A stretch of 64,000 bases of DNA from positions 36,818,213 to 36,882,212 of the forward strand of contig OZ234493.1 of the NCBI GenBank assembly GCA_965153455.1, written 5' to 3'. Shown here piece by piece: positions 246-61,472 of this stretch (position 1 is the stretch's first letter; each line of letters begins with the position of its first letter). The position numbers and the translations under genes are program-made. A model generated the notes under the pieces. It was given only the letters and a program-made list of their open reading frames with translations. It was not told where the DNA came from and did not search any database. This DNA is from Sphagnum compactum (Eukaryota).

Positions 246-247
246 CG

Positions 248-259: not shown

Positions 260-288
260 TCAAGGTGAAGCTGAACGACATTTTTGGG

Positions 289-15755: not shown

Positions 15756-15757
15756 CG

Positions 15758-34920: not shown

Positions 34921-36299
34921 TAAATTAACAGGGCATGGCCCCCCCGCCCCCCCTTTTTATGCCCTGGTTACTTGCCTGAACAATAGGAGAATTTTCTAGG
35001 ATATTTGTTTTCCCAATTTTGGGCAGTCTGTAAGGGAATATTTGATTTTATTTTGGAAAAACTGCTAGAGGACATAAAATTGCGTGCAAAAAAAGAAGTT
35101 GGAGCCGCTAGCAGCCTGCCAGGATCGCATCAGAATCTGTGTTCTTCCAGTGGACGTCAACGGAAGAAACCCTAAACCCAAAAACACAAACCGAGCAAGC
35201 CCCACAGCCCTTCTTCCCCCAACACACAGCAACAAAAAAAATTCAAAATCTTCTGGTTCTTCTTCTTTTATTTGCTGCGTTTCTCACTCTTCAGGTGTCC
35301 ACAAAACCCAGATGTCCGTCCGTGCGTCCGTGCTATTCTGTCCGTGACTCCTCCTCCCCTTGAATTCAAAATTCAAGAGCAAAAAAAAACCCGGGATCTT
35401 TAACCTAAACCGGCCTAACCCGAAAGTAGACCCAACAGTTCGGTACTCAAATTGTTCAACATCAAGATAGCCAAGGACCAAATTTTCCAAAGAAAAAAAG
35501 AACACGCGCATACGTCCGACAGCCCTCGACGATCTCGCAGCCAGAAAAGAAGTCATTTTTGCAAATCTCAGAGCTTTTGTCTCACCACAGTGCTCTGGAT
35601 TTTTATGGTGCGGGGGGGGAAGCAAGGAAGGAAGGAAGGGGAAGAAACTAGAGAAGAAAGCAACACCCATCAGAAGAGCAAAGACAACAAAAGCTTCTTA
35701 CAGGTGCCCAAAACCCATCGCCACAAAAGCGACGGAGCGAGGAAAACGGGCATGATAGGGAAAAGGTTGATAAGTTTGGGAGGAAGAAGGGAAAAGGTAA
35801 GAAGCGGGGCATAAGCGGGAAAAAGTTGAAAAGTATAGGAGAAGCAGGGCAAAAGGTGAGAAGGTTGGTAGAAGTGGGGAAAAGCGGGGGAGTTTGGCAT
35901 AAGCGGGGCAAAGGGCGAGAAGAGGGGCATGAACGGGCAAAAGGGGATACGTTTAGGGTTGAGGGGAGCAAAAGGCAAGAAGTTTGGCAGGAGGCGGGAA
36001 AAGGGAATAAGTTTGGGATAAGTCGGATAAGACGTGGAAAGTGGGAGAAAAGCGGGCAGAAGGGAATAAGTTTGAGAAAATGCAGGAAAATTTGGGAAAA
36101 AATTGATAAGTTTGGGAAAATTTGGGAAAAGTTAATAAGTTCGGGGGAAGGGGGGCAAAGGGTGAAACGTAGGGAGAAATTGAAGAAAGTTTGATGAATC
36201 GGGCTTAAGCGGGCGAAAATGGGAAAAAAGTGAGCGTAAATTGGCGAAGAACGAAGGAGGAGGGGTTGAGAGTGGAATAAAAGAGGGGCGAAGGAAAGG

Positions 36300-37333
36300 G
36301 GGGTAAAGCGGCGAGGTAAAGCGCGAGGTTACACAAGATTTAAAGCGCGGTAATTTGGGCGAAGCGGGGTAAAGCGGGAGGTAAAGCGCGTTAAAGCGGG
36401 GTAAGGAAAATTGAAGCGGGGTGAAGCGGGGTAAGGGGAATTGAGGCGGGGTAAAGCGGGAGTTAAAGCGCGTTAAAGCGGGGTAAGGGGAGTTGAACCG
36501 GGGTAAATGGGAATCGAAGCGTGTTAAAGCGTGTTGAAGCGGGGTAAGGGTTTATGGTCGTGGAGGCAAAGCGTGAGTCGTAGCAGGGAAATAGGAGTTG
36601 AAGCGGGGTAAAACAAGAGTTAAAACGCATTAAAGCGGGGTAATCGGAGTTGAAGCGAAGCAATCGGAGTTGGAGCGGGAGTTATAGCGCGTTAAAACAA
36701 GATAACAGGAGTTGAAGCAGGGTAAAGCGAGGTAAAGCGGGGTTAGGGGAATCAAAACGAGGAGTTGCAGCGAGAGTTAAAGCACGTTAAAATAGGATAA
36801 CGGGAGTTGAAGCAGGGTAAAGTGTGCGTTAAAGCATGGTAACGAGAGTTAAAGCAGCGTAAAGCGGGCTAAAGCGCGCAAAAGCAAGATAACGGGTTTT
36901 GAAGCGGGGTAAAGCGGCGGTTAAAACGAGTTAAAACAGGATAACGAGAGTTGAAGCGGGGTGAAGGGAGGGTTAAAACGCGTTAAAGGAAGACAACGGG
37001 TTTTAAAGCGGGGTAAAGCGGGGGTTAAAGCGCGTGGAAGCGGGATACTAGGATTTGAAGCGGGGATTAAAGCGCGTTGAAGCAAGATAATGTGTTTTAA
37101 AGCGGGGTAAAGCGACGGTGAAAGCGCGTTAAAGGAGGATAACGAGAGTTGAAGCGAGGTAAAGGGAGGGTTAAAGCGCATTAAAGAAAGATAATGGGTT
37201 TTAAAGCGGGGTAAGCGGGGGATAAAGCAGGGTAAAGCGGGGGTTAAAGCGCGTTGAAGCAGGATAATGTGTTTTGAAGCGGGGTAAAGCGGAGGTTAGA
37301 GCGCGTCAAAGCAGGAGAATGAGAGTTGCAGCG
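36300..37333. repeat. G-rich satellite built on a 10-bp-like TAAAGCGGGG / TTAAAGCGCG motif with higher-order units
   Basis: Dense recurrence of AAAGCGGGGT and AAAGCGCGTT, preceded by purine-skewed sequence from about 35750. Confidence 0.85.
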
Positions 37334-37410
37334 GGGTTTAGGGTTTAGGGTTTTAGGGTTTAGGGTTTAGGATTTAAGGTTCCCAGATTTAGGGTTTAGG
37401 TTTAGGGTTT
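37334..37410 (+). repeat. Interstitial plant telomere-type repeats (TTTAGGG)n, partly degenerate
   Basis: GGGTTTAGGGTTTAGGGTTTTAGGGTTTAGGGTTTAGGATTTAAGG...TTTAGGGTTTAGGTTTAGGGTTT. Confidence 0.88.
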
Positions 37411-38083
37411 GGTATTTTTTCCAGTGAGAATTTGGTGGTTAATGTTATCCTTTCTTCTCGTTTCCTGTGGAGTCTCCTATATTGTCATGGAGATGTAACA
37501 GCCTAGCACAGCCCACTAACATCCCCTGTTTTTCACTAACTGTTCATTTCCAAACAGTGTAAACTAGACCCACATAGAGATGGAGTGTCCAGGAACAAAT
37601 CCAAATTTCATCCGGCGAGTTTCTGTGTTACCAGTTACCAGTACCTGTGGGGCTTCGGTTTAAACCGGCTTCATCTTTCAAAGATGGACAACTTTCTACC
37701 CTTGTTTCATTGTATTGTCCTTAACCCTACTGCGTTGTATTCTCATTCCTTGAGGATGCATCAGCTAGATCTACAGTGTACCTTTCCAGTTATTTTTCCT
37801 TCGTTTACACAACCAGTGCAGGTGGTCCTGCATATCTTCGGGCATGATAGGATGTTACTAGTCTCCCTTTTCTCTTATCTAACCATTACTAATCTGTCTG
37901 CAATTTTGTCAAATGTAGTTCTCCTCTCTCTTACATGTTCTCGAGTCACATACTAGTATAGCAAATGAATGTTGGAGCTTACCACCTTACCAAAGGACTG
38001 GGAGGTGGCATCCACTGTCTTTGCTCCTTGATCAGAATTTGTAATATTTTTGTTTAGAGTTTAGTCATGGCGATCGGGCACAG

Positions 38084-39080
38084 TGACGCACTCCCAAGTT
38101 CCTAGTGGACCCGCTTGAGGGTCCAAGTATGCGACAATGCGAAAGGAGTTGGAACTTGGAGCCGCTCCCTAGCTCACAACACTTGGAGGGGTAGAGGGGC
38201 GTGTTGGAGCTCCGGGATGGGACTAGGAAGAATTGACAAGCTTATTCACTCACACAGGCCTGCACACAACCCACACAAAGTGGTTAGTGCATAGTTGGAG
38301 CACTTTTGGTGCTAGGACGAGCCGCGGGCAACACGGACACACAAGACTCACCACGGCCCGGACTTGGGGGAAGCCACCACCTTCCCCCTTATAGTATACT
38401 CTGCAGCTCTCCACGGAGGCTACATCCAAATGGCTATTTTTCCCGGGACTCCCGAATGGGAGTCCCGAAATCGCGCCAAATGGGACTCCCGCGACTTTGG
38501 AGCCCCATAACGTTGCAAGCAGACCTCGGATCGCAATGCAGTTTGAAGCAAAGTTGTAGATCTCGTCGAGACCTTTCCAACGGTATGTTGCACGTCCTCT
38601 GCAACCTAGTATTTCGGGTCGATTCTCAACTTTTAGTGGTCGGGAGTCGAAATTGGCAGACTCCCGGGAATTCGACTCCCGATCCTTCTTTTGGCCACAA
38701 CTTGTGTTTTAGATGTTCAAATGAGTAATGCGAGCCCATTTTAGATATCTACGCTTCAAAAGCTTTCCAATGATATAAAGAACGCCACAAGACATTGAAG
38801 TTTGACACCTGCAATTGCTCTCTGAAGTTTCAAGAGTCCATCGGGACTCCATCTCCCAAAGTGGGAGTTGCCTTGGGAGTGTGAGTGTTCACTCCCTCAC
38901 ACTTTCTTACACTCCCGGGAGTGTGATGTGACTCCCGGGCTTTCTCTTGCCTTGGCTCCCGGGCTTCCTCTTGGTTTAACTCCCGAGCTTCCTCTTGGTT
39001 TAACTCCCGGGCTTCCTCTTGGCCCGCAACCTTATAACCCCTTTCCCTTTGGTCCCGGGCCCAAAGCTAGGGTTGCGACA
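38084..39080 (-). mobile_element. Solo LTR related to family B (997 bp)
   Basis: TGACGCACTCCC...AGGGTTGCGACA, TSD CACAG (38079-38083 and 39081-39085), internal 24-bp tandem copies at about 38930-39020. Confidence 0.94.
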
Positions 39081-39107
39081 CACAGATTGCAACCAGAGAC
39101 AACCCCT

Positions 39108-39688
39108 TTTTTCGCGGTTGTCCATGGTTTCAGCTTTTAGTGTCCTTTCCTTCTTTCTTGAGTGAAGAAAAAGTTGAAGATACCCCTACTTTTTGCTGGG
39201 CTCTCCTCAAAAACGAAGTGGGCAACTGGGGAAATATGTGCAGTTGTGTGATACCGGTCTTTGGAAGCTGGGGTATGTAGTGGACCAATGTATAAAGTCA
39301 TGTAATGACAACCATAGTAATAGGATCAACTCTTCTGAGGCAGGATATTTTATGGAATATTGCAAGAAAAGACTTCTGGATCGATAAGCCCATGGTTGTC
39401 CATGGTTTTTCGCGGTTGTCTATGGTTTCAGCTTTTAGTGTCCTTTCCTTCTTTCTTGAATGAAGAAAAAGTTGAAGAGACCCCTACTTTTTGCTGGGCT
39501 CTCCTCAAAGACGAAGTGGGCAACTGGGGAAATATGTGCAGTTGTGTGATACCGGTCTTTGGAAGCTGGGGTATGTAGTGGACCAATGTATAAAGTCATG
39601 TAATGACAACCATAGTAATAGGATCAACTCTTCTGAGGCAGGATATTTTATGGAATATTGTAAGAAAAGACTTCTGGATCGATAAGCC
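39108..39688. repeat. Tandem duplication, period 298 bp
   Basis: 39108-39390 and 39406-39688 are nearly identical; short ORFs 39193 and 39491 are offset by 298. Confidence 0.92.
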
Positions 39689-40362
39689 ACTATATGCTGC
39701 CGTTGCAAACATGGTTTCCATTCCTTCATAGCTTTTTCTGAATAGAAGGTAGACGGGAATTTCTTAGATTCTGAAGGCTGTTTTGATTTGGACTTGTTCA
39801 AGGTCGTTGCCTCTCAATTGGAAAGAAAATGGATGAGTACTTTGCACCCTTTCTTTCCAAGAGGTCACAACTTAATAGGCAAGTCAAACCTTAATAAGAC
39901 GTTCATACCTTAAGGGTGCATCAAGCTTTTGCAATGTTGTGGAGATAGGGCAGTAAACCTTTGTTTGCTCGTCTTAACAACAAAGTCTGCAGGGTTCCTT
40001 TTAAAGTTCTTCCCGTTGTTGCTGGAAGTTTTCCTCCTCCCTTGCCGGTTTCCGAGGAGACTGGTTCCCCTCCCGATGATGTGCAACTAAATCACAGAGG
40101 GGTCCCTCACCTTCATCCTCCCAAAATTTTTGGCTGCAGAATTTCCAAATGAAGGCTGGTATTCCTTTCTTTTCTTACGGCTCAGGATAAGTATTCTATT
40201 TTTTTCTCTCCAAGTATACGACAGCGAATCTAGTTCGTATGCTTTTGTTGCTGTCTCACTTTTCTCCTTTTGTTCTTGGTCCTCCTGTTAGCTAAGCTTT
40301 ACAATTGTCCAAATTTCCGAGTAATTTTATAACAAGTGATAATGCTCTTCGTTATTTGTCAT

Positions 40363-42845
40363 CACTACTAGGAAATGCGTCCTAGTTCACTATGGGTTTC
40401 ACTAGATTTTTGAGTGAATTTGGACAGTTTCACTAGGTGAAATTGTTTAACCTCCTAGTGAACGGGGACCAGTTGCTACGGACAATGACTTGTTTCACTA
40501 GTAACTACTGAAACAAGGTTATTCTCAAGTGAAATACAAATTTACCAAACCATTCATTTACTAGTTAATTAACTAACCAGTATTAATTAAATTTTAATTA
40601 TTTAATATATAATACTATTGATAATTTCATGATTTTTAAAGCCTATTATTTATTGACACGTGTCACTACTTACGATAGGTTAAAAACCTAGCCTAGGTAG
40701 GTAGGGAGGCCACGTAATCAACCTAAGCACCTAACCTTGGAATTTGAGAGGAGAATATTTGGTCAACATACCATGTTGACCACACACAACACCACCCATG
40801 AGGTTTGATCCCTTGACCTTTGGAATGGGGGCAAACACTTTTACCATCAAACCACCCCACTTGTTGTGATAATATGTTACATTACATTCTATTTATCAAA
40901 TACTTCATTTTGAACATTACAAAAATATAAACTTTGAAAATTGGCAATCCTAAGCAATTATAATATATGGCTATTGGTTGTTTTTTTATTAGTGTTATTG
41001 GTGGTTATTAATGGCTATTGGTACCTATTATATTTGTGGCTATTAATGTTTTTTAGTGGTTATTCTATTAATGGCCATTAGTAGTTATTCTATTGGTAGT
41101 TATTCTATTAATGGCTACTGGTAGCTATTCTATTAATAACTATTCGTGATTAATGTATTAACGGCTATTGGTGGTTATTTTATTAATGGCTATTGGTGGT
41201 TATTCTATTAATGGCTATTGGTGGTTATTCTATTAATGGCTATTGATGGTTATTTTATTAATGGCTATTTGTGATTAATTTATTGATGGATATTAGTGCC
41301 TACTCTATTAATGGTTATTGGTGGCTAATATATTAATGGTTATTTATGATTAATCTATTAATGGCTATTGGTGGCTAATCTATTAATGGCTATTGATGGC
41401 TAATTTATTAATGGCTATTGGTGGCTATTATATTTATGGCTATTGGTGCTTATTCTATTAATGGCTATTGGTGGCTATTTTATTAATGGCTATTCGTGAT
41501 TAATTTATTGATGGATATTGGTGCCTACTCTATTAATGGTTATTGGTGGCTAATATATTAATGGCTATTTATGATTAATCTATTAATGGCTATTGGTGGC
41601 TAATCTATTAATGGCTATTGGTGGCTAATCTATTAATGGCTATTGGTGGCTAATCTATTAATGGCTATTGGTGGCTATTATATTTATGGCTATTGGTGGC
41701 TATTATATTTATGGCTATTGGTGACTATTCTATTAATGGCTACTGGTGGTTATTTTATTAATGGCAATTGGTGACTAATATATTAATGGCTATTGGTGGA
41801 TATTATATTAATGGCTATTGGTGGCTAATTTATTAATGGCTATTGGTGGCTATTCTATTAATGGCTATTCTATTAATGGCTATTGGTGGCTAATCTATTA
41901 ATGGCTATTCGTGATTAATCTATTAATGGCTATTGGTGAATATTCTATTAATGGCTATTGGTGAATATTCTATTAATGGCTATTGGTGGCTATTTTATTA
42001 ATGGCTATTGGTGGTTATTTTATTGGTGGTTATTTTATTGGTGGTTATTTTATTGGTGGTTATTGACGGCTATTTTATTATGGTTATTAATGGTTATTGT
42101 ATTATAAGTTATTGTTGGTTATTATATGTTATATTACAACTATTGGTTTATTGTATTATAAATTATTGTTTGATATTTTACGTTATAATATCATAGGCTA
42201 TTGGTAGTTATTATATTGTAAGGTATTTAAAATTATTTTTCATAAGTTATTATTTTCTATTTTAAGTTATTTTTACCTTAGGCCATTATATTCTATTTTA
42301 GATTATTTTAAAGTTATTATGCTTAGGATAAAATCATTTATAATAACATTAAGTAGAATGACCTTGAATAATTAATTTAAAGTATAACTTGAAATAACAT
42401 ACATTAATTTAAAATAAATAACCTAAGGTATAGCCTAAAGTTAGTTGAATAATTTAATTTTAAATAATTTAAAAGCTTATAATAAACTAGTTAAGATACT
42501 TTAAGGTAAAATAACATATAATAATTTAGGATACAATAATTTATAATAGCTTATAATAACATAAAATATAAGTTAAAATAACTAAAATAGCTTAAAATAA
42601 TATAGGGTATATCATAAAGTAACATAGATAGAATATTTTAAAAAACATAGAAATAAACCTATTTGCTATAGTAAATTGTAATAGTGAATTATGTTAACTA
42701 GAAATGAAACACGATGTCTACATAGTGATATTATAATGAAATAACTTTCACTAGGTGAAATCAGTAAAATGCAATGAAGTTATTTCATTTTTAAGGTCCC
42801 ATAGTGATTTAAGCCAGTAAATTACACCCCACTTTGGTAGTAGTG
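40363..42845. mobile_element. Non-autonomous CACTA (En/Spm) DNA transposon
   Basis: Ends CACTACTA... and ...TAGTAGTG, 3-bp TSD CAT (40360-40362 and 42846-42848), subterminal TTCACTAG motifs near both ends, no transposase ORF. Confidence 0.9.
40965..42110. repeat. 21-bp minisatellite inside the CACTA element
   Basis: Consensus TATTAATGGCTATTGGTGGCT(A/T) repeated tens of times with variants. Confidence 0.92.
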
Positions 42846-43938
42846 CATCCAGTGCCCTCTTTCATAGGCAGAGATCTCACGATCTCTGTTTTTGTGGAGG
42901 TAGGCCTAGGGGCTCAAAACGCAAGATGAATCTTCACAGTGCCACTTGGCATCATTTAAAACACTTTCCAAGCTGGGCTGAAGGTGACCAACCAGTCATC
43001 GGTGTAGGCGCTGCAAGTTGGCCAGGGTGAACAGTACCCATGTTGGTACCTTGACCTTTTTGAGTGAAGCCTCTTAGTGGCCATATTAAGACCAAAAAAT
43101 GTTAAATCTTAACTCAGACACCCTAATTCTGTCTAAGCATGGGATATTTGTAATGCTTGGAAATGCTTTAAATGGACGCTTGGGTTCGCCCAAAGGCTCT
43201 CAAGTCACTGTGCCCTTGTTGGCTGATGGAATATCATTGAAACTACTTAATAAGCTAGATGGGAATTTGTTCGGAGTCCACAATTCTTTTATAAAAACAA
43301 TCAAGGCGTTGAGGCTTGTGTTGCCCTGTTATTGGGGAATTTTATTTTTTAATAAATATGTTAGGTACCGATGAAGGGCACAATGACAGGCTCTTGCAAC
43401 CTGCATGCCGCTTCTCAGTACTAGCAACAATGTTCGTTTTGGGAAAAGAGAAAGGTGAGCTAGCTAGAGTTGCACAAGAAGTCCAAGGCCATGTAATTCA
43501 CAGGGCTCTTGTGAAAATCCCCTCCGATCTCGTTTGTGTCATTGAATCCATCAGAGACATGTCTGTGGACATAAGTCGCAGACAAGCGTCCAGGCGCTAT
43601 AGAAGACTTATGTATGCCAGTGCTTTTGTAGCTGCTGCTGGCTTGTTTATCCTCCCCCCCATGTAGTGTAGGCTGAGCAGTATGCAGTTTCCTGGGTAGC
43701 TTGGTCTACAACGTTAGAGAACAATACTCTGTTAAGATCCTGTAAATAGTCCAACTGTTCCAAATTACCACGTTCTTTTTTCCGAGTCTCGTGCTGTGAT
43801 TGGTAATCATTCAGTGTGTTTGTAGTAGCTGGAAACAACAGGCTATGTGAAATTTTTGGAAGTCCTCACCTCTTCTTAAACAGTAATGATTAGGTAATAT
43901 TGTAGACGAAGAGTGTGATAGCATCATCCGCTTTGTCT

Positions 43939-44143
43939 GTGTCGACTCTCTCTAGTGACCCAAGCTCACAACGTTCTGTTCAGTGCTGTAAGAGCAGTAC
44001 TACTGTCCGTGTCGACTCTCTCCGGTGACTAGAGCTGACAACATTCAGCTGGGTGCTGCAGGAGCAGTACTACTGTCAGTGTCGACTCTCTCTAGTGACC
44101 CGAGCTGACGATGTTTAGGTTAGTGCTGCAGGAGCAGTACTAC
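43939..44143. repeat. 70-bp tandem repeat, 3 copies
   Basis: GTCGACTCTCTC starts at 43941, 44011 and 44081, and each unit ends with GAGCAGTACTACT. Confidence 0.9.
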
Positions 44144-44729
44144 TCTACTTGAGAGAGAGATGGACATAGTCCATAAAGGACCGGTGTTTGGCCTACCTCC
44201 ACTCCAGGTCCCAGAAGGGACCGACTAGTTTCTTTTCCTACGGATGGTTTGAGTCTCTCTTCCATTTTGAGCCTTCCTTCTGTGTTGGACTGTCTTCCTC
44301 TGCTTGTTGGAAAGTGTTGATCCCTTCCCTTCGTTCCTTGCAAATATGCTAAAACGTCTGGTCAAGAGTTTTTTAGCTATGGGGCGTTGGGTACATCTAC
44401 CCGTGCTCCTCAAGTTAGTAAAATTATTCCCTCTGGATGTGCTTGTTGTTGTTTCCCCTAGTTTTGTCGGTTCCCATCATGGTCATGTTATTTCTTAGAA
44501 GAGGATTGTTATTTAAGAATCCTGCTGCAGTCTCTTGATTTCTTAACTCTGTGCACTAAAATTGACTCAGGGGATCTAAAAGCTCGTAGCAGAATTCTAC
44601 GAAATAAAGTGTTCTATCGGACGCTAAAGCTTCATCGTTTTAAGTTATTGATGGTTCCAAAAATTGTTTTGAACTATCAGTTTTCCTCGCCGCAAAAAAA
44701 AGCAGAGAGCAGTTTGTTTAAAAATCCTA

Positions 44730-44915
44730 GGCTTTAAATTTGTAGAGGCTTCAGATTTGATCTCTGGTTGGATTTCATATTAGACAATTTGTTTCTCTGT
44801 TTTGCCCGACGTGCGTGTAAACAAATGCATCGGTATCCCCATGGGTACAAATTTTGCGCTCTATTGAGCTAATCTCTTCACCCGGGAGTTGTCCTTTGCC
44901 CCATTTATAGATTCT
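44730..44915 (+). pseudogene. Degenerate reverse-transcriptase fragment, Penelope-like element type
   Basis: Manual translation: WLDFILDNLFLCF (44765), then CIGIPMGTNFALY*ANLF (44826), then PFID. This resembles the PLE RT pattern FLIDNIYV.FG..QxxGIPMGTNCAPxLANLF..R(Y/F)IDD. Confidence 0.6.
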
Positions 44916-44955
44916 TGAGACTTTTTAGTTTCGGAAGAAGTTTTTTGTCTTCCAA

Positions 44956-46690
44956 ATGGTCAGTCCTATTCTCTTTCTGCTGAAGGTAAAAGGCTACCCT
45001 TTTAGAAAACTTCTAAAGAAAACTCGAGCGTTGGTTATTGAAGAAGGATTCTTATTTGGGATTTTTGCTTTTAGCAGGTTTCAAATGATTTTGCTTTGAG
45101 CCATGCGAGTGGGGAGCTTCCTGTAAGCCCGCTTTATCCTTCCTTGTTGTTTTCCCTTTCTCTCTTTCTTTGTTTCTTTGACTGGTCTTTGTTCTGAGGT
45201 ATGTTGTTGGCAGGGTCAACATCCTAAACCCCTCACGGTTGCACTATGGGAGGAGCCCAAGCCTTTGGCGATGAGAGACCAATATGCAATCGACGCAGCC
45301 GGGGACTCGTTCGGTAGCCTTGTGACAGTGGAACTTCCACCTCCAGAATGGTAAGGGCCTCCTGAGGATAACCTCGTATTGTCCAGCTCAAGGTTTTTTT
45401 CCTTTCTTAAGTCGATTGTGAAGGTACTCCTCGTAATTTGATACGGATTGTTGTTAGGAACACAAAATTGAGCTTCACCAAGCATTGGGGAGCCCAGGAA
45501 AGTGCCTCCATTATCCGACATTTTCGTGCTGCCGGGCATAGTGTCCCGGACTCCGTGCGTAAGTTAATAGGCATGGGCATCCCGACCTCATCTCCAGAGG
45601 AAAACAAGGGACATTATCCGAATCTTGAGGATTTTCAAGAGATTTGTGAAGACTCTATGTTGATCCACAATGGGGAGATGGTGGCCATTATTTTTCATGC
45701 ATTTGTTCCTTTGATTGAAGCTTCGGAGCACGTTCAGACCTTGGGAGATCTCTTTCGGTATGGCGGCACCATGCTTTGCACCTGTTCTCCGGAGTCTCAA
45801 ATGGCGTTGTTTGGGCACAGGTTTTGTCGTGGCGATCTCACTGTGAACAGGTCGGTACTCTGTAACCAGGATGGATGCTCATTCAAAAAAATTTATTTTA
45901 CTTTTTTTTTTCTCATGGCGCGTGAAGTTCTTTCCTTTCAGGTACCGGCACAGCACGAAAAGAAACGCAGGAGACAAAGGGACCTGGTCGTAGGAGGAAC
46001 TAGAACGGTCTGCAGATGCTTGGGCCACAAAATTTGTGTAGACAAATTTGCATCCGCAGCTTGAGTCGTGGTTGAGAGAGTTGGACAGCTTTTTCCCTAA
46101 GGAATTACCATTTGGCACCTATAGAGTGGGAAGAAGTTGTTTCACGGCCATGGCGGTCACTGAAAACTACCAGTCCACACCGCATACTGACAGGGACTTG
46201 TGCAATTCTGTGATCTCCTGATTTTTGGAAGGTGAGTGTTCTTTGTAACTTTTGTTTATTTTAGACACTATGAGCCTTGTGAAAGGGGAAAAAAAAATGA
46301 TTGCATACCTTCCTACTCACATTTCTTCATTGGGAATTCGGTTGGAGTTGGACAGGAGAAGTAACATCAGGAGGGCAATTTGTGTTTCTAACGCACAAAT
46401 TGTTTTTTCGGCCCAGGCAAGGGACTGTCATACTCTTCCAGTCTACATGGCTTCAACATTGTACCATGCCCATCCGAGGGGAAGGACGGCAATTGGGTTG
46501 CGCATTGTACCTTCGGAAGCAGACGCTCTCCCAATACACAGCTCGACAAGCAAATCTGTTTCGAATCAATCGAGCTCTGAATGAATCTATGCGAACAGCA
46601 AGTTCCATTCGAAGACGGGGGAAAGGCAAAATGGGTCCACTTGAAGGTGCTTTGCTCATCACCTATCGTGGCAATGATGTCCAGGTCTAG
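44956..46690 (+). pseudogene. TET/JBP-family 2-oxoglutarate/Fe(II) dioxygenase, six predicted exons, three nonsense codons
   Basis: Phase-compatible GT-AG exons 44956-44985, 45078-45122, 45214-45350, 45458-45850, 45942-46231 and 46356-46690. Spliced protein contains QMALFGHR, FTAMAVTENYQSTPHTDRD (HxD at 46183-46191), GGQFVF, PRQGTVILF, LQHCT (His 46457) and GRQLGCALY (Arg 46487). Stops: TAG 45991, TAG 46039, TGA 46219. Confidence 0.78.
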
Positions 46691-46702
46691 GACGAAGATT
46701 GC

Positions 46703-48526
46703 TCTGCGACTGAAGGCTGGGATGGATGAGTCCAGCTTTTGAGAGCTGTGACCAACAAGGCTTTGTTCGTTGTTTTTAAGAGCAAAATTGGGGAATTGGG
46801 TGAAAGAGTTGTGTATTTGGGTAGAGAGGAGGAGGAGGATGGTTTGCGAGAAAAAATGAGGGGGGACCCTAAAAAGGGAGGAAGAACGGGAAAAAGTAGA
46901 ATCGAGATTGATTAGGAGGATCATACCTTAAGGTGCCGGGAGAGAGAGATGGAGAGAGATCATGATTTTTGACACGTCCGGTTTAGGAGGAGATTGAGCT
47001 CACAGAATGGCAGGCAGAATCAGGCATACCAGATGTGGGAGAGCTACAAAGAGCAAGAGGAATTTGGCAAAGATGTGTTGAAACAATTCCAAAACCATCT
47101 CTCCAAAATCCCACTTCCTATACCCGATGATGCACTTGCACCAGCAGCAGCCACCAAGACTGGAGCAGTGGCAAATTCAAGGTGGGGATCAAATGGTTAC
47201 TCGGCAAATTCGAAGGAGCTTAATGGTGATGGACTTCCCGATCTGCTGCAACAATCAAGAAGTGATGCAATTGCACCAAACAAGAGATCAAGGGTCGATC
47301 GACCGAGTAATAATGGAACAGGTCTGTCATCGTTGGAAACAGATTGTCTTGAGCTCGAATCTTTGCCTTCCGAGAAGAGATGATGACAAGCAATAGCTGC
47401 ACGAAGATCAGCAATGAGTTCGACTTATCAAAGAGGGAGACAATCCAGGAGACACGAGAGCTACAAGATCCGGGTGCAGAGTAGTTGGAGCAGCTGTTGA
47501 TGTCAAGTAGCTGTTTTGAACCTGAAATTGAGATGTCGGACATCAACTTCCTCTCTGCAATCACAAATCCCAGTATCGCAAACTAACAACTCCTTGGAAT
47601 TCTTTCCTGATCTGCGACTGAAGGCTGGAATGAATGAGTCCAGTTTTTGAGAGCTGTGGCCAACAAGGCTTTGTTGGCTGTTTTCAAGGGCAGAATCGGG
47701 GAATTGGGTGAAAGAGTTGTGTATTTGGGTAGAGAGGAGGAGGAGGATGGTTTGGGAGAAGAAATGAGGGGGGACCCTAAAAAGGGAGGAAGAACGGGAA
47801 AAAGTAGAATCGAGATTGATTAGGAGGATCATACCTTAAGGTGCCGGGAGAGAGAGATGGAGAGAGATCATGAATTTTGACACGTCTGGTTCAGGAGGAG
47901 ATCGAGCTCACAGAATGGCAGGCAGAATCGGGTAGACCAGATGTGGGAGAGCTACAAAGAGCAAGAGGAATTTGGCAAAGATGTGTTGAAACAATTCCAA
48001 AACCATCTCTCCAAAATCCCACTTCCTGTACCCGATGATGCACTTGCACCAGTGGCGGCCACCAGGACTGGAGCAGCGGCAAATTCAAGGTGGGGATCAA
48101 ATGGTTACTCGGCAAATTCGAAGGAGTTTAATGGTGATGGACTTCCTGATCTCTGCAACAATCAAGAAGTGATGTAACCGCACCAAACAAGAGATCAAGG
48201 GTCGATCGGCCGAGTAATAATGGAACAGGTCTGTCATCGTTGGAAACAGATTGTCTTGAGCTCGAACCTTTGCCTTCCGAGAAGGAGATGATGACAAGCA
48301 ATAGCTGCACGGAGATCAGCAATGAGTTCGACTTATCAAAGAGGGAGACAATCCAGGAGACACGAGAGCTGCAAGGTCTGGGTGTAGAGTATTTGGAGCA
48401 GCCGTTGATGTCAAGTAGCTGTTGTGAACCTGAAATTACGATGTCAGACATCAACCTCCTCTCTACAATCACAAATCCCAGTATCGCAAACTATCATGTA
48501 GACAACTCGAAATTCTTTCCTGATCT
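46703..48526. repeat. Tandem duplication, period about 908 bp, containing a frameshifted ORF of unknown function
   Basis: Both units start CTGCGACTGAAGGCTGG (about 46703 and 47612) and end TTCTTTCCTGATCT; both encode MWESYKEQEEFGKDVLKQF... Confidence 0.92.
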
Positions 48527-51500
48527 ATTATTTCCTAATATAGTAGTATTAAGCAAGTTATTACTACATATCGACATGGTCGTTTGTACACCCCATGATT
48601 TTTTTGATGCCACTGGTTCCATCTTTCCACCTGAGCTTGGGAATTAGAGAAATTGAGCTTTGCGACTGAGATTCATTTTCCAGCTTTCTCTGCAAGTGAC
48701 TCTTGTTAGGAAACATTTGTCTTGTAGCTCATGGGTACATCGATGATCTCTTGAGGGTGGATTCATATTCGAACTTGGCAAGTCGGTGTTTCATCAACTC
48801 ATGGGTGTACTGTTTTGCCTGCTATTTGATAAGAGATGAACAGATCTGCGGCAAGTTCTTAAGCTTAACATTGCTGACTAGCAACATGCCAAATTTCAAA
48901 CTTAGTTCCTGTGTGCATCACTGTTTAACCCTAAACCGTTTTTGATAGAGATGCTACGATGCTTTGCTTGAGGCTGACATATTATCAGCAGCAGCATCAG
49001 TGATCAGCTTAAGGAAAGGTACAGCTTTTGTGCTCTGCCAAGTTGTTAGTGGCAGAATACAGAGACAACCAACCCATGGTATATTGGTTTGTTGTGGACA
49101 CAAATTTCTGATCTTGATGAGAAAATCCCACATTCTTTTGTGCGAGCAGTGTGGGTCCAATTGTACAGATTTGTGTGGTAAACCCATCGTGAGTTGAATC
49201 AAGGACTGGAATTCTAGACCTGGAAGAAACTGTTCTGGTTTTCTTCTCTCCAGGTTTTTGTTTCAAATCGGTGTTATTGAGGAGGAGGCTGTGATCGCAC
49301 TTCAAAACACTGGATGTCGGTGAGGCCACGCTGCTTGTTCATATTTGATCGTGATTTCCTCTAAGAAGTTGGAGAGCATTTTTTTGACCATTCGGACTAA
49401 AGCCTGCCCCAGTGCATCAAGTGAAGTATCCCAATGATGGGTGAATCTTGTAGTTATCCAAGTTCTTTCAACGCAAAGGAAAAACAGATTAAGTTTTAAT
49501 TGAGTGGGCGAAAGGTTAGGCAAAAGGCACAAGCACCCAATGCATGGAAACATACCGTAGCACTCTCATGATGGATTATTCACCTGGGGAGGGCTTAAGT
49601 TTCTCTTTTGAACCAACTCACATTGTAGATGTGTGATGTTTTCATACCTTACTTGCTTCTTTTCATTCTTCTTTGGTGTAGCGATGCTAGGGGAGGAGAC
49701 AGCTGCAATCTATACGTGTTGCGCAGCGGTGATCGATCGAGTGCAACCGAACGCATGGTTGGTTGAAGAAACAAACATGCAGTCGTGTCTGGAAATGAAC
49801 GAAGGTTCCACGTGAGAAACTTGGAACAGTAGAATCTCCAAGACCTGGCTGAATCTGATGGGGAGAGGATAAAACCAATGACCCCAAGTCATCCCTCACG
49901 AACTAAACATGATTGGCATCGACTCGAACTACTTCTTGTTGCCGATCTCCGTTGATGTTCGTTTCGGCAGTCCGATGGGTGAACTCTCGGGCTCGCACCA
50001 CCCCGAAGAAGAAGTAGCCCAGCACCGAGTTCCTGCAGCTCTTTGCATACAGCTTGATCGTTCGAGCTGGGGCAGAGAATGACCGGACATTGCGTTGCAG
50101 CAGGTGGTAATTTGTGCTTTATGTCATTCTCTTTTAGCTTCCGAACTTCGAGGGGATGCATACCTTAAGGGTCCATCCAAAACAATCTCTTCGAGGCAAT
50201 GCACGATCCCAAGAGGACCGGTGGCTTTCTGGCATGCTTGCATTTTACCGAGGGTAGGACGCCCTCTAATTATACCATGGAAGGTCTAATTGTTCTTTAT
50301 GAGTTGATGAGGCGCAAAATTTTACAACCTAATCCATACCATCCTTCGATCGCTGAAATCTCTGTAAAACTAAGAGCCTCCAGAGTTTTCTTTGAGCAGA
50401 CAGCCACTTTGGGTATGTATATGTTTTGCCTCGATCATGCAGAGAAAGGAAACAAAGGTGTTTCATTGGTCATAACACTGACCACAGCATTTTGGCTCAT
50501 CTTTGATTCGTGACGGTCCCGGGTGGGTGCGTGCACGCGAATGAACCACTGTCCAACCCGCAAAAATTTGTAACATTTTGAACCCATCGAGAAACAAATC
50601 ACATCACATTTAAAGTGATACCCCTCACCATATTGCATATGATACATGTTATTGTTCCCATTTGCCTTTCCCCCCTGCGATGGGAAAAAAGTTGGGCATC
50701 TTCAATGCACGTTGAGGGTTACTTCTCAAGTCCTTTTTTTTTTTTTTTTTTGCAATGGATCGCTTTGATCAATTCATGACAAAAAAACTTCCAAAACTTT
50801 GGAAATTTCCCCCAAATAGAAGTTTGCTCTCCCAATGTATGTAATTGTTCAAGGTTAATTGATATTGGTCATCACTAATATATATATTTTTAATGTATCT
50901 TTGCCCTTCGAGAGAAAACATGGAATGGTGGTTGTTTTGTTTTCATTGACAATGTTTAACAGGACAAAGATGGTCTATTGAATGATTTATAATTCATGAC
51001 ATTATAACATGTCTAAAATTAAGTTTTTTATGTGATTTAAATTGGATTTTTAATATTGGAAATTATTGAGATCTCCCATGAAACATTATTGACATATTAA
51101 ACTAATTTCAAAAAATGGCTTAAATCACTAACTGCATTTGGAGGCATGAAAGCAAGGTTTTTTCTTTTTTCCCTCATCCATGCCTTTGTGGGCACCCATA
51201 CCAAAGAAAAAATTTATTTATTCTTCCCATTCTTTGCTTTTGTTGCTACCTAGGTAAAGGTTCAAGCAAGTTTTCTTTCTTTCCCTTTTTCCCCTTTTGC
51301 GGTCGTAGAGAGGGGTTCAAGCAATATTTCATTCTTTTTGTCACCCTCCCTTTTTCCGTTATGGTTGGTGAAGGGTTCAAGCAAGGACCTTTTTTCCCCT
51401 CTTTGCCTCGCGTTCTTTCGTTGTTTTCATATCAAGTTGTCTCTCATTTGAGGCAATTACATGTTCAGTAACTAGTCAAAATGGGACTTGGTGAAACAAA

Positions 51501-53682
51501 AAAGGTTTCATGCAATGTCTTTTTGGGTCTTCTACCAATGCCCTTTTGTGTTTTTTGGGCATCCCTTTTCAATGTTTACAAATAAATAGTTTTTGTTTTG
51601 ATATCATTGGGAAAAATATTGTTGCCAATAAGTAGATAGTTTTTGTTCTATTACCAATGTTGTGAAAATATTGTTGGCAATAACAAGGGTGGCGTGTGTC
51701 TCCTCACCATTACTTCCTTTAAACTCCTTGGTGGCTTGAAAGTTATGGAAGCTTTCCATTGGAGTCCAATTGGGGAGCATCTTGGTCACAACGAGAATTC
51801 TCGAGCTCAATAGGAGGTTGTAAATTCTTCTTTCACTCAAAATTTTTCAATTTTCGTTGTTTACTTGAAAGATTTAAAGATTTTGTCTTGATGATGATGT
51901 TTTACAATATGTACATGGTTTGTAATGTTTGAATTTATAAGGTTATTCTAGTATGGGTTATAAAACTAGACTTGATTTAAATTTGGAACTATAAGATTTT
52001 GTTATCAAATTGTTGGCTTTTGAATTTTACCAAAACATCTACAACAACATGCACATTCACATTATGTATAAACATTCTCTATACGTTCATACTTCATTAT
52101 TTTGACACATAACATGGTTTCATCTACATTTCATTTTTTTTTTCAATTGCCATCAATCAAATTTTATTTTCCCATTTGCATTTCATTTGGGCATCATTGT
52201 TCTCCCCATAATTTCCACTTCATTGGATTACCATTTTGACTCGTATTAAGTTGGGTGTCCATTTATTTGTTAGTTGCTCATGGATAAGTTTTTCTTTTTT
52301 CTTTTTTACAAGTTTATAAATAATGGCTTGTTTTCACCACAAGAATGAGAAACCTCGAACTTAGAGCTAACTTGAGCCTTCAACTTTGATTTGGGAAAAT
52401 GGATATAAATCATGGATGAAAATTAAATGTTGGATGAATGGGCACAAATGGTCAATAGATAAAAAAACATCTAACCAATTGTTGGAATTCATTTTATTAG
52501 AAACATCTAGAAGGAAACCATGAAAGAATTAAAATTTGTATTCCATTTCATGTGAAATATTTCATTCATGACCAAGGACAAAAACATTGCATCTTGTTGA
52601 ACTACAATGAAATATGTTCAATGGAAAAACAATAAATACTCCAGAATTCAAGTAATTGGAAATGCAATAAAACAAGGAGGTTGCAACAAAACCACAAGAG
52701 TTCAAAATAGTGTCAAATGAAAATTTTACATCTTTTGAAATGAATCTAACGATCGGAAACATTCCATGCAAAAATTACTATGTGGTCAATATCCGTATGC
52801 AATCAATGTGAAAGATCTCACACAAGACCATTTTTTCCCAATCTGAGCGCACATTGCAAGAAAAATGTGTAAGAGGTTTTCTCACGTGTCCTTCGCCCTG
52901 GTAGGTCTCATGTGAAAGGAAATAATTCGACAGCCAGAATCCAATGAAAGTTCGACCATCCACACTTAGTTTTCGGTGATTTCAAATCGGAAAAAAATCC
53001 CTATATTTCGAATTTATTCATTTATTTGGGGCAATTTCTTCCCCCAAGAAAAAGGACGCCCTAAACCTTGGACAACATTTTTTTCTCCAAGTTTGCGATG
53101 TAGCCAGTTTGGCAATGCTCCACAATTCAGTTCAGCAAATTTTGATTATCCACAAGATAAAGTAAGAGAGTAACAAATTAAAAGGGAATTTTAGTGTTTT
53201 CTAAATAGTTGTTTCTTAGAGTTGTAAAGTTTCCATTTTCGTGGGTTTTCTATAGATACTTTCCCCTTGGTTTTGTTATTTTATATATATATATATATAT
53301 TTTATTTGTTGTGCTTGCTAGAAAGGTTGGTTCATATTTCATATTTCATTCTTAGTTTTCATTTTCTACGATGTTTGCAAAAAACTATTTCTCTGTTGTG
53401 TATTTTTCCTTTTTATTCTACACAGTCAATTTTTAAATTTTAGGGGGTTTGAGTTTTCAAATAAAACGTAGTTTCTTCGCCTTCTTTTTCTTCCGACAAT
53501 TTTTGTTGTTTATTTCTTTTTGTATGTTTCTTTTCTTTTTCTTTTACGACCTTTTTTTGGGCATTTGTAACTTTGGATAACCTTTTTTTTATTTTTTTTA
53601 TGTTTTTTGGGTTTCTTTTTTCTTATACTTTGGTTTTTCAAATACGTAAGTAGATCGATAATACTTATAAGATTTTGTACAG

Positions 53683-54530
53683 GTGACTACAAGAATTCCT
53701 CTCAGCTATGCTTTAATTTGTGATTGCGCATAACTACATCCCTTGGTTTGATTTGTTGTTCGCACGGGAGCCAACGAGCATTTCGATTGAGACACGAACC
53801 GTATTTAAAAGTCAACCTGGATTGCAAGATATTTTGCACGGCTCCTACGTCCCATTCCATTCCGCCCAACATCGAGCATGCCGTATTTATGAGCAAATCT
53901 TGGTAACGTTCATGTTGATATTTCTAGAAATAATCCAACGACCAAAAACGTTGGATGCAAAATTTGCATCGTGGTGGAGAGAACGTTGGAATCAAAATGG
54001 AAGATCTCACGTAAAGCATTTTCTACCAACCGCAGTTGAAAAAAAATGTGCATGAGATTTTAGGCTTGTCCTTCGCAATGCCAAGATCTCACGTTAAAGG
54101 AGGTAAATAAGCTCTGAAAATCCTATGATCTCGAACGTATCGTTGTACGTGGGACAAGATTTCTTGCCTTGAATGAAACAGACTCAAGGTAACTCAATGC
54201 AATATAAAAGATTGCACAGGGTGGTCGACTCATTGAATCATTCACGTAAAGGTTTTTTTCGCAGGTCATTGATATATACTTGAATCGCACAACCCTTATT
54301 CCCTCCGTGCACAATTCACAAGCTAGAAAGGTGCGGAATTAGTTTTATTTTAGCATAGCCAATCCTTTTGATGGCATTCTGTTGATCATAAATTGTTGTT
54401 AGTTTTTTATCAGCGTTTATGGTCTTCCAAGAGGCGTCAATTTTCTGTCCATTTGCTTCAAAATATTTTCAGTCTTATGATCGTATTTTTTGCAGATGTG
54501 AGAACCCGAAGCCACCAACCTGATAGACAT
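53683..54530 (+). pseudogene. 5' exons of an unidentified spliced gene remnant interrupted by chromovirus copy 3
   Basis: Protein-like ORF 53720-54055, small GT-AG exon about 54264-54329 (VIDIYLNRTTLIPSVHNSQARK), and frame EPEATNLID joining MPSNVR across the TSD. Confidence 0.4.
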
Positions 54531-55349
54531 TGACGCGCTCCTTGGTCCCGAGGTGAACCCACTTAAGGGTTCACCAATGTGAAGTTGCGGAAAGTGGGGA
54601 CCGAAGGGCACGCTCCCGACTTCCAACTCTAGAAAGGGGTAGAGGGTCGAGTTGGGAGCCCCGAGATTAGACTAGGAAGATGGACTAGTAGATCAAGCAC
54701 GAATCTGCATCCAAAACCAACCACAAATGGGTTAGTTCACATTCGGGAACACCCTTGGTGTTGGGACAAGCCATGGACACTTTGGACTACTTGATTCACC
54801 ACGGCCCGGACTTGGGGGAAGCCACCACCTTCCCCCTTATAGTTATCTCTGCAGCTCACCACGGAGGCTACATCCAAATGGCACATTTTGTTGGGACTCC
54901 CGAAATGGAGTCCCGAAATTGTCCTGGCGGGACTCTCGGGACTTTGAACGGTCATAACTCCCGATTCCGAAGTCCGATCGCAACGAGGTCTAAACCAAAG
55001 TTGTAGCCCTCGTCGAGATCTTTCCAACGCCATGTTGCAGTCCCTGAGGCGACGTCGGCAAAGGGTCGATTCCCGACTTTTAGTGGTCGGGAGTCAAACT
55101 GCCATTTTGACTCTCGGCCCTTCTTTTGCCCATAACTTGGGCTTTAGATGTCCAAATGGCCAATGCGAGGCCATTTTCGATATCTACGTTTCAAGACCTT
55201 TCCAATGACACCAAGAACACTCCAATGCGAGGTGTTTTGCCCCTTGCTGTCGAGCTCTGAACATTCGGGAGTCCCGGAGGACTCCAAACCTCCAACTTTT
55301 CCAAGTGTTGGGCTTCACCCCCACACTTGGACAAAGTGGGGTTGCGACA
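54531..55349 (-). repeat. 3' LTR of copy 3 (family A)
   Basis: TGACGCGC...GTTGCGACA next to the PPT complement. Confidence 0.96.
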
Positions 55350-56127
55350 CTCTCCCCCACTAGAAGAAAGAGGTCAATGTCCTCATTGACACTTAGAATT
55401 TTCCTTCATACAATTGCAATTGCTTTCTTTTGGATCCTTGGCCATTTGCCGACTCTTGCGGCTCGGACCTTGTCTCAAGCTAACTTAGGCGTCCCCGAGT
55501 TTCCAACACTTTCTTGACAAGTCCAAGAGGGTCTTGTAGGGAACCCTCTTTCTTTGCTTCGTCAAAAGACTAAACTAGCCTAATTGACGAAGCCCTCATT
55601 TGGGAGGAACCTTTTTCCATCCTTCCCTTCATGAGGACTTAAGTCAAGTCTACTCTTGACTTAAGCTACTTGACATGACTCCTTTCCCTATCTCGCGCCT
55701 TGGTCACAACAACCAAGTTTTAACTAAAAGATTTGCTTATCAAGGTACGAGAAAGGATATTTAGGTTTGCCAAACCCAAGTCCCAAACTACACTTAAAGT
55801 ATGCGAGCGGGGTCATGACTTCCCACGTTGGCCACACTACCAACCAACCCTTTGGGATGCACTTAAGGCATGTGCATGTCCCCGCAAGCTCACCTTGCTT
55901 GCCTCCTCTTTTGAGGCCAAGTTTCCTCAACCCCACAGTAGGAGTCCGATTTTGATTTGGGCCTACGCAAGAGAGTTCTATTTGTCCATGCCACAACCCT
56001 ATTTGCCTTAACAAATTTTTCATGATACAATCTCTTGGAAGTTTTAAAGCCCTTTTTATTTCACTTGCAACTTGATGTGGTACATTTTATGAAACTCTCC
56101 CCCTCTAAAAGAAAGGTGATGTCCTCA

Positions 56128-60609: not shown

Positions 60610-60638
60610 CCCAAAAATGTCGTTCAGCTTCACCTTGA

Positions 60639-60650
60639 GCTCTGATACCA
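60639..60650 (-). promoter_or_regulatory. Primer binding site (tRNA-iMet) of copy 3
   Basis: GCTCTGATACCA, 2 nt from the 5' LTR. Confidence 0.92.
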
Positions 60651-60652
60651 CG

Positions 60653-61472
60653 TGACGCGCTCCTTGGTCCCGAGGTGAACCCACTTGAGGGTTCACCAAT
60701 GTGAAGTTGAGGAAAGTGGGGACCCAAGGGGCACGCTCCCGACTTCCAACTCTAGAAAGGGGTAGAGGGTCGAGTTGGGAGCCCCGAGATTAGACTAGGA
60801 AGATGGACTAGTAGATCAAGCACGAATCTGCATCCAAAACCAACCACAAATGGGTTAGTTCACATTCGGGAACACCCTTGGTGTTGGGACAAGCCACGGG
60901 CACTTTGGACTACTTGACTCACCACGGCCTGGACTTGAGGGAAGCCACCACCTTCCCCCTTATAGTTATCTCTGCAGCTCACCACGGAGGCTACATCCAA
61001 ATGGCACATTTTGTTGGGACTCCCGAAATGGAGTCCCGAAATTGTCCCAGCGGGACTCCCGGGACTTTGAACGGTCATAACTCCCGATTCCGAAGTCCGA
61101 TTGCAACGAGGTCTAAACCAAAGTTGTAGCCCGCGTCGAGATCTTTCCAGCGCCATGTCGCAGTCCCTGAGGCGACGTCGGCAAAGGGTCGATTCCCGAC
61201 TTTTAGTGGTCGGGAGTCAAACTGGCAGTTTGACCCCCGGCCCTTCTTTTGCCCATAACTTGGGCTGCAGATGTCCAAATGGCCAATACGAGGCCATTTT
61301 CGATATCTACGTTTCAAGACCTTTCCAATGACACCAAAAACACCCCAATGCGAGGTGTTTTGCCCCTTGCTGTCGAGCTCTGAACATTCGGGAGTCCTGG
61401 AGGACTCCAAACCTCCAACTTTTCCAAGTGTTGGGCTTCACCCCCACACTTGGACAAAGTGGGGTTGCGACA
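60653..61472 (-). repeat. 5' LTR of copy 3 (family A)
   Basis: Direct repeat of 54531-55349. Confidence 0.96.

Follow-up and report, generated by a model that had tools for sequence, protein, structure and literature searches.

In Chlamydomonas reinhardtii, CMD1 sits in DNA-1_cRei, an element of 18.4 kb which is described as lacking a recognisable transposase, and most of the other TET/JBP genes of Chlamydomonas are placed in Helitron2 families (bioRxiv 10.1101/2022.06.16.496473). Fungal TET-like copies are reported to ride several DNA transposon lineages, KDZ and others (PMC12730594). Active DNA demethylation in plants is described as resting on DML glycosylases (PMC6801703). Here, a window of 64,000 nucleotides from the moss Sphagnum compactum (contig OZ234493.1, positions 36,818,213 to 36,882,212 of the forward strand) was analyzed, in which positions 45214-46690 hold the remains of a dioxygenase gene. 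With a probability of roughly 0.85, this locus is a non-functional duplicated (unprocessed) pseudogene of a moss family which joins a C2H2 zinc finger to a TET/CMD1-like dioxygenase domain, and it decayed as a consequence of methylation. No report of TET-type genes in mosses was found in a full-text literature search; comparative-genomics surveys and supplements lie outside that search, and an earlier mention is possible.

Relation to CMD1 and Other TET Enzymes

The family is placed in the TET/JBP superfamily by its predicted fold, its profile match to CMD1 and the layout of its active site, with Pfam scores that remain below the cut-off. On these sequence and model data it represents a divergent branch from the green lineage that carries a C2H2 finger and has CMD1 as the nearest of the solved enzymes. 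The first-pass annotation of the window had proposed a relic of a TET/JBP-type dioxygenase in a moss genome, and this is supported by the profile and fold matches and by the close matches, in which Sphagnum is the only genus among those named to species.

In detail, CMD1 (PDB 7cy4-7cy8) is the only significant sequence match among the solved structures and also the best fold match. A profile of Sphagnum sequences and their distant relatives (A4), compared with all solved chains, gave CMD1 an E-value of 5.3e-16 and the next chain 0.57; the respective values for a profile of Sphagnum sequences only (A2) were 0.006 and 0.78. The AlphaFold2 model of the distant relative P0052 (predicted local distance difference test, pLDDT, 76.0; predicted template modelling score, pTM, 0.69) has the double-stranded beta-helix. 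Its Foldseek E-values were 7e-13 for CMD1, 2e-12 for NgTET1, 1.5e-9 for CcTet and 8e-9 for TET2; all rows listed to rank 25 belong to these four enzymes (7e-13 to 8.5e-8) and the first non-TET match is PHD2 at 2.7e-6. The first-pass annotation had called for a comparison with NgTET1 and CMD1; these two are, in the order CMD1 and NgTET1, the best matches of the P0052 fold. The weaker model of the Sphagnum protein P0006 (pLDDT 60.6) has TET enzymes (CMD1, CcTet and NgTET1) in its top seven places.

The Pfam comparisons point in the same direction at low scores. Tet_JBP, with a gathering cut-off of 34.9 bits, is the best Pfam family for the two core exons of the window, which score 12.3 and 12.4 bits and align where they should in the profile (68-97 and 119-164). 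It also ranks first in four of ten Sphagnum models (best 25.0 bits, E 1.2e-5) and is listed for nine of 17 distant relatives at 15.6-20.2 bits, below the cut-off.

A different placement is that the domain belongs to a protein or small-molecule oxygenase dependent on 2-oxoglutarate (2OG), similar to prolyl hydroxylases, and that its likeness to TET goes no further than the shared beta-helix. In its favor are the sub-threshold scores of all Sphagnum and window sequences in Pfam, the last exon, which on its own scores 16.5 bits with 2OG-FeII_Oxy_3 versus 12.4 with Tet_JBP, the two ESM Atlas clusters nearest to the Sphagnum model P0004, which are auto-named prolyl 4-hydroxylase, and a viral collagen prolyl hydroxylase at rank 8 for the P0006 model (2.1e-5 vs 1.3e-6 for CMD1). 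On the contrary, no solved structure other than CMD1 is matched significantly in sequence, the TET enzymes precede PHD2 by about six orders of magnitude with the full-length P0052 model, and PF12851 marks the set into which 23 of the 30 Atlas matches of P0004 fall, mainly Tet_JBP clusters. Two of the 17 distant relatives (P0074 and P0130) score above the threshold for PF20515, a Tet-like family, the positions which hold cytosine in CMD1 are D, Y and R in Sphagnum, and the domain is joined to a C2H2 finger of nucleic-acid type. Such a placement is thus very improbable, and the best matches are not enzymes such as prolyl hydroxylase or PhyH, the outcome named beforehand as a refutation; both profiles and folds put TET enzymes first.

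The active site of the window copy follows that of CMD1. The HxD...H triad is in order, with H 46183-85, D 46189-91 and H 46457-59 at the places of H345, D347 and H397, and CMD1 and the Sphagnum proteins share 'TEN', HxD, 'I.WF', 'GG.F', the distal 'H.T' and an aromatic plus Arg pair (F416/R418). CMD1 contacts vitamin C through R244, H249, S335, T337, W358, T399 and S414 (PMC7854593). T337, W358 and T399 have identical counterparts in Sphagnum, S335 and S414 are replaced by Ala, and R244 and H249 fall outside the alignment. The cytosine-holding D350, F416 and R418 (as given in PMC7854593) correspond to the D, Y and R mentioned above. Both CMD1 and the moss family belong to the green lineage. 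The differences are also considerable: about 20-24% of the core is identical, the aspartate following HxD is one residue closer in moss, and the moss proteins, of about 400-470 amino acids (aa), carry an N-terminal C2H2 finger, which is not reported for CMD1.

Two arginines are named as co-substrate ligands in these enzymes, namely R1261/R1896 of TET2, R224/R289 of NgTET1 and R244/R410 of CMD1 (PMC7854593). The Arg of the N-terminal 'M...G.R(F)' motif is present in the window (45819-21), in a region outside the alignment to the solved chains. In the distant full-length relatives P0052, P0077, P0083 and P0086, the distal Arg is replaced by T, E, P or S with Q-x-G conserved, and P0086 has Tyr at the position of the first iron-binding His. 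These replacements may hint at altered co-substrate use or at inactive members.

NgTET1 of Naegleria, CcTet of Coprinopsis and human TET2, the next-best folds, have their N-terminal Arg, HxD and distal His arranged as in the moss proteins (tentatively also the distal Arg). In the PDB profile searches their sequences were not matched significantly, and the moss family is without Cys-rich or CXXC modules. Like the fungal Tet-like oxygenases of PF20515, which are associated with KDZ, hAT, IS3EU and other elements (PMC12730594), the moss family is multi-copy, expanded in a lineage-specific manner and rich in decayed copies; the Atlas clusters nearest to P0004 are basidiomycete, and the distant relatives P0074 and P0130 score above the PF20515 threshold. 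Unlike that group, the best Sphagnum score is 18.0 against a PF20515 cut-off of 27, and no adjacent transposase was found in the ORFs of the window or of the paralogue flanks.

Based on the correspondence of the HxD(x)xD aspartate and the aromatic/Arg pair with the cytosine-contacting residues of CMD1, intact members of the family would be expected to bind DNA and flip 5-methylcytosine (5mC) into the active site. By analogy to CMD1, they would then either oxidize 5mC or modify it with a glyceryl group, in both cases opposing methylation. This action on 5mC is inferred, as is any use of 2-oxoglutarate or ascorbate.

Relatives in Sphagnum and Other Green Plants

A search with the HxD exon, its stops read through, returned 16 of 25 candidate proteins at E<=0.01, the best being 89% identical. 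All six rows named to species are Sphagnum (S. fallax, S. tenellum twice, S. compactum, S. troendelagicum and S. jensenii). The preceding exon added six further proteins, two of them named Sphagnum and one, P0020, called 'transposase' by its source. Most of the Sphagnum models are fragments or run into introns.

More distantly, 176 matches at E<=1e-3 were obtained when a profile was compared with 1.84 billion representatives. P0052 is among them as a full-length protein of 413 aa (E 4e-27), and its clade, the nearest one outside the mosses, has a weak ESM Atlas lead to Chlorophyta (0.78). Two of the clusters could be named, one by two proteins of Physcomitrium patens, XP_024366530.1 and XP_024362000.1, and one by a protein of Coccomyxa sp. 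Obi (BDA41471.1). XP_024362000.1 (LOC112275673) has 418 aa with C2H2-type fingers, M..G.R, PH.D..D and the distal H.T, and it matches the Sphagnum profile in hhalign with 95.3% probability (E 2.2e-8). Both this protein and XP_024366530.1 (LOC112277918) resemble the Sphagnum family in the C2H2-type finger(s), M..G.R, FT..A.T..F...PH.D, the distal H.T and Q/L-G, but identity is only 28% over 116 core columns. Unlike the broken window copy, the P. patens genes have open reading frames (ORFs) that are intact in the annotation. No description of the function of these P. patens genes was found in the literature searched. Apparently intact relatives thus exist in bryophytes, as exemplified by XP_024362000.1, and functional paralogues within Sphagnum are unproven, 22 of 24 near-complete copies having in-frame stops.

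Exon Structure of the Locus

The gene is on the forward strand and four of its exons are recognizable, numbered here as exons 2 to 5 of the five in the family. Exon 2 (45214-45350; AG at 45212-13, GT at 45351-52) reads GQHPKPLTVALWEEPKPLAMRD...PPPEW and is matched by residues 77-115 of P0005 and 75-133 of P0022 in tblastn, as are all homologies given for the exons. Exon 3 (45458-45850; AG at 45456-57, GT at 45851-52) encodes the N-terminal half of the dioxygenase and is matched by residues 9-139 of P0007 with 66% identity and by P0013 with 75%. It carries MALFGHR, in which M (45801-03), G (45813-15) and R (45819-21) are the residues of the family consensus M...G.R. Exon 4 (45942-46231; FTAMAVTENYQSTPHTDRD) is the iron-site exon with three in-frame stops, and its motif FTAMAVTENY..HTDRD contains, besides the H and D of the triad, a further D at 46195-97. 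Exon 5 (46356-46690; AG at 46354-55), matched by residues 100-222 of P0004 and 183-307 of P0006, comprises GGQFVF, PRQGTVILF, LQHCT with the distal His, GRQLGCALYLRK with the Arg of GRQLG (46487-89), the aromatic and Arg pair of 'ALYLRK' and the C-terminal tail, and ends with TAG at 46688-90. Hence, all the motifs that had been claimed (M..G.R, FTAMAVTENY..HTDRD, GGQFVF, PRQGTVILF, LQHCT and GRQLG) were located in exons 3 to 5.

The borders of the four exons are all canonical GT-AG and the phases are compatible, the codons divided by introns being TG|G (W), AG|G (R) and G|GA (G). The last two junctions are each spanned by a Sphagnum gene model: P0007 aligns to 45459-45851 and on to 45940-46212, and P0004 to 45928-46236 and on to 46343-46723. 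P0005 aligns to exons 2, 3 and 4 in order. No second copy of the gene was found within the window by tblastn. The six-exon model proposed at first is therefore not supported as a whole: borders, phases and homologues bear out the four exons of 45214-46690. Its two upstream exons (44956-44985 and 45078-45122) fit in phase and are without a homologue or an RNA joint.

Premature Stops and the Lost Zinc-Finger Exon

The stops of exon 4 are TAG at 45991-93, TAG at 46039-41 and TGA at 46219-21. At the first, the closest loci (12 cover the codon) have CAG in seven, CAA in two and TAG in three cases; at the second (13 loci), CAG in nine, CAA in one and TAG in three. At the third, TAG is found in L010 and no stop in the others listed. 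The homologous proteins read Q, Q/E and W at the three positions, the W in those which have that part of the exon. Codons and proteins together confirm the claim that each stop is a single transition away from a sense codon. Two of the stops are common to L004, L006 and L008 and the TGA is private to the window; judged from its sequence, the stop of L010 at the same Trp codon is an independent event. In P0018 and at locus L021 (4437-4658), the exon 3 segment 'ASEHVQTLGDLFRY...MALFGHRFC' is tandemly repeated internally or occurs as a stray extra fragment, which is read as further decay by rearrangement.

The paralogous genes have five exons, the first of which encodes, in 77 codons, a C2H2-type zinc finger (C-x2-C-x12-H-x5-H) and precedes the 'GQ...' exon by about 85 bp. 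This exon was not found anywhere in the 64-kb window. Alignment by blastn to the paralogue L037 shows that window positions 44904-45206 match L037 548-841 and 45207-46704 match L037 1365-2864, whereas L037 842-1364, including the zinc-finger exon at 1058-1255, has no counterpart, so that the gap falls at 45206/45207. Every version of the locus which covers this junction and is collinear with the window there is without the proximal zinc-finger exon. The upstream block (44904-45206, forward strand) is common to the paralogues as their -540 to -1 region, and it contains the two upstream exons of the six-exon model.

Two side observations concern this upstream region. In one paralogue clade (L012, L015 and L019), the stretch before the zinc-finger exon is occupied from -66 to at least -1500 by tandem repeats of about 128 bp. 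A short conserved ORF, 'MAESSRCS.NCS..', is present at the upstream block of paralogues (L047 1706-1723, L021 and L032) and could represent an upstream ORF, belong to a 5' exon of the family or come from an abundant transcript of its own.

Related Loci and Pattern of Divergence

One scan of metagenome contigs with a narrow alignment (A3) returned 58 loci. Thirteen of them (L001-L010, L023, L056 and L058) are 90-95% identical to the window and are, judged from sequence, versions of its own locus, because in several of them the collinearity reaches kilobases past the gene (overall about 40000-53835). The remaining loci are 65-87% identical across exons 3-5 and their introns only, and represent paralogues. 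Among the 24 near-complete copies (exons 3-5 covered), the only ones free of stops are L028, with nothing but a frameshift in the C-terminal tail, and L020, which is clean on a partial contig. Some loci consist of exons 3-4 only (L013/24, L026/34/35, L038/42 and L043-45). Separately, L002, L005, L006 and L010 are four distinct versions of one collinear block of >10 kb in a single metagenome sample, with a synonymous divergence (dS) of about 0.12 between them; two of the four recur in another sample. Paralogous segmental duplicates, subgenomes or a mixture of species may account for them.

Divergence between deep clades is that of a coding sequence under constraint. Pairwise values at codon positions 1, 2 and 3 were 0.22-0.26, 0.16-0.21 and 0.47-0.51, with 0.40-0.49 in introns (for one single deep pair, 0.25, 0.21, 0.49 and 0.40), and the ratio of nonsynonymous to synonymous divergence (dN/dS, Nei-Gojobori) was 0.10-0.11 with dS saturated. 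The old splits between paralogues thus indicate strong purifying selection, and a family that was once functional. Within the clade of the window the picture differs: between the window and L005, the three codon positions and the introns diverged by 0.053, 0.047, 0.071 and 0.053, respectively. Since positions 1 and 2 diverge as fast as introns, the recent divergence of the locus group looks neutral.

The three stops, the lost first exon, the retained introns and this intron-like divergence of positions 1 and 2 are the reasons for which the locus is considered an unprocessed pseudogene. The first-pass annotation had regarded its inactivation as recent, and this could not be maintained. About ten haplotypes of the same locus differ by dS 0.08-0.16, mostly have stops of their own and change at positions 1 and 2 at the pace of introns; consequently, on sequence grounds, the inactivation is not recent and is older than these haplotypes.

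The direction of change suggests a mechanism. Relative to its consensus, the locus group has 247 C>T/G>A versus 41 A>G/T>C changes (288 transitions and 81 transversions), and the C>T/G>A changes touch 61% of CG, 64% of CHG and 18% of CHH sites. This bias is the footprint expected of 5mC deamination at plant methylation sites. The window copy would have been silenced by CG/CHG methylation and would then have decayed by deamination of 5mC, which would account for the CAG>TAG and TGG>TGA stops.

Expression and Functional State

Expression was sought in X10, a polyA RNA-seq run under the same species label, of which about 12 million reads (about 12% of the run) were used, and in metatranscriptomes. 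No X10 read fell on the gene body (45208-46622), a result which rests on one run at that depth and is not proof of silence. The 176 reads that were placed are 90-99% alike (154 of them at 90-95%), 172 are partial matches and all lie outside the gene body. None of the five junctions proposed for the six-exon model, for which a check by RNA-seq had been advised, was observed as an RNA joint in X10 or in the metatranscriptomes. One metatranscriptome contig is unspliced across 44963-45366. The tables of the metatranscriptome runs X1 and X2 are identical and look like one data set filed twice. X10 reads whose match ends at 45206 continue with sequence from the upstream region of L047 and L049, that is, the start of the 'MAESSRCS.NCS...' ORF; therefore, the 5' region of some paralogue is probably transcribed. 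As a further observation, short pieces of 44400-45207 match abundant RNA, partially and mostly at 90-95%, with depths up to about 1,700 in metatranscriptome contigs and 29 in X10.

A working window copy would have to overcome its stops by read-through, RNA editing or alternative exons. Its splice sites and all of its catalytic residues are intact, and C-to-U editing in bryophyte organelles offers a faint precedent, but in the direction which would create and not remove these stops. Three stops in the essential HxD exon, the loss of the first exon, the lack of X10 reads on the gene body, metatranscriptome contigs that are unspliced and of low depth, and the different stops of sister copies make this the least credible of all the readings, at the very margin of probability.

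Besides the narrow basis of the X10 result, several observations speak against a decayed TET-type pseudogene and lower the confidence placed in it. With regard to its relationships, no Sphagnum sequence reaches the Tet_JBP cut-off and five of the ten models have no Pfam match at all; the first profile (A1) found in the PDB only a prolyl 4-hydroxylase at E = 1, although this profile was discarded as a poor alignment in which the GGQF columns were lost. The folds are those of a distant relative (P0052) and of a partly frameshifted Sphagnum model (P0006), and no complete intact Sphagnum protein is present among the retrieved models. The distal Arg (46487-89) is one position off R410 of CMD1 in the hidden Markov model alignment and is not conserved in distant relatives. 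With regard to decay, the close loci L001 and L023 are free of stops as far as their exons are covered, and metatranscriptome contigs cover the gene at depth 2-17, unspliced over the introns; these may be DNA carry-over, and they show neither expression nor silence. Finally, dN/dS between recent copies is 0.34-0.51 (Nei-Gojobori, NG86) and not 1, which is attributed to the transition and C>T bias that the method ignores, and some residual constraint may contribute.

Genomic Surroundings and the Question of Transposons

The precedents of Chlamydomonas and fungi suggest that the moss family could be transposon cargo, with an enzyme serving transposon anti-silencing and the window copy as a dead passenger. 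A connection of this gene with transposons had been raised from the start, and none was found when sought in the window and at the paralogues. Several features nonetheless fit a mobile origin: the family is multi-copy with scattered partial copies of exons 3-4 only, strong purifying selection acted from clade to clade and copies of one clade decayed in a neutral-looking manner, a TE-like (transposable element) pattern, the CG/CHG deamination signature is typical of silenced repeats, P0020 carries its 'transposase' name from one source, at least four versions of the >10-kb collinear block exist in one metagenome sample (L002, L005, L006 and L010), and DNA-1_cRei itself is described without a recognisable transposase. 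CMD1 resides in that element, but no element was found at the Sphagnum locus. Apart from three Ty3/gypsy elements more than 8 kb away, none of the 145 ORFs of the window has a transposase domain, and none turned up among 36 ORFs flanking nine paralogue loci and two window ORFs, in scans that can miss intron-rich transposases; the neighbors in these flanks are ordinary plant genes, namely those of GTP cyclohydrolase I, a RhoGAP and a VARLMGL-motif protein. Homology from clade to clade extends only from about -540 to between +60 and +180 with staggered ends, no terminal inverted repeat or target-site duplication was seen at the one boundary pair inspected, and there are no inverted repeats in window positions 36000-56000. 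Transposon cargo is therefore an unlikely explanation, if a better one than a non-nucleic-acid oxygenase, and the unprocessed pseudogene of a host family is preferred.

Two candidate elements were rejected. A Helitron reading of the L032/L047 unit (5'-TC and a hairpin near the 3' end) failed on three counts: homology passes the CTAG, some 40 nt separate the hairpin from the end, and the limits of other clades differ. The direct repeat 38345-38471/54793-54919 was dismissed as element ends; its second copy adjoins the gypsy element at 56-61 kb, and it is probably long terminal repeat material.

The Ty3/gypsy elements are chromoviruses with gag, protease, reverse transcriptase, RNase H, integrase and chromodomain, at 214-4767 (+), 8220-15855 (-) and 56131-60789 (-), the third having the longest open frames (1013 and 539 aa). 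Exon pieces of an SNF2-family helicase (25239-27009, -) and of a Ser/Thr-Tyr protein kinase (34133-34956, -) lie in between, so that the setting of the pseudogene is ordinary gene space flanked by retroelements.

Directly 3' of the gene, a 908-bp tandem duplication (46700-48527) has halves that are 92-96% identical; the unit is single in L002, L005, L007 and L009, double in L056, and its frames of 98-165 aa have no Pfam matches. Upstream, an AT-rich insertion of 2.5 kb (40364-42847), which is absent from L006, L008 and L010, holds a 25-bp satellite array of 41 copies from about 40940. G-rich tandem repeats of 10/52 bp ('GCGGGGTAAA'-like) at 36358-37350 produce a strong GC skew there.

Implications for DNA Methylation in Mosses

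The window locus is a dead gene and as such matters little; the presence of the family in land plants is of some interest. A CMD1/TET-like family fused to zinc fingers occurs in two moss lineages, with deep purifying selection and apparently intact genes in the transformable P. patens. It is conceivable, as a tentative extension and with the odds rather against it, that mosses (Sphagnum and Physcomitrium) keep working zinc-finger-fused enzymes of CMD1/TET type which oxidize 5mC or add a glyceryl group to it, and that the Sphagnum genes turn over by birth and death in an arms race with host methylation, possibly in alliance with transposons. If so, land plants would not be limited to ROS1/DME glycosylases for the removal of 5mC, and in Sphagnum one copy after another would be shut down by CG/CHG methylation and lost to deamination. 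The family thus opens the question of whether any land plants make 5-hydroxymethylcytosine or 5-glyceryl-methylcytosine enzymatically, and its Sphagnum copies would offer a clean natural example of gene death driven by CG/CHG methylation.

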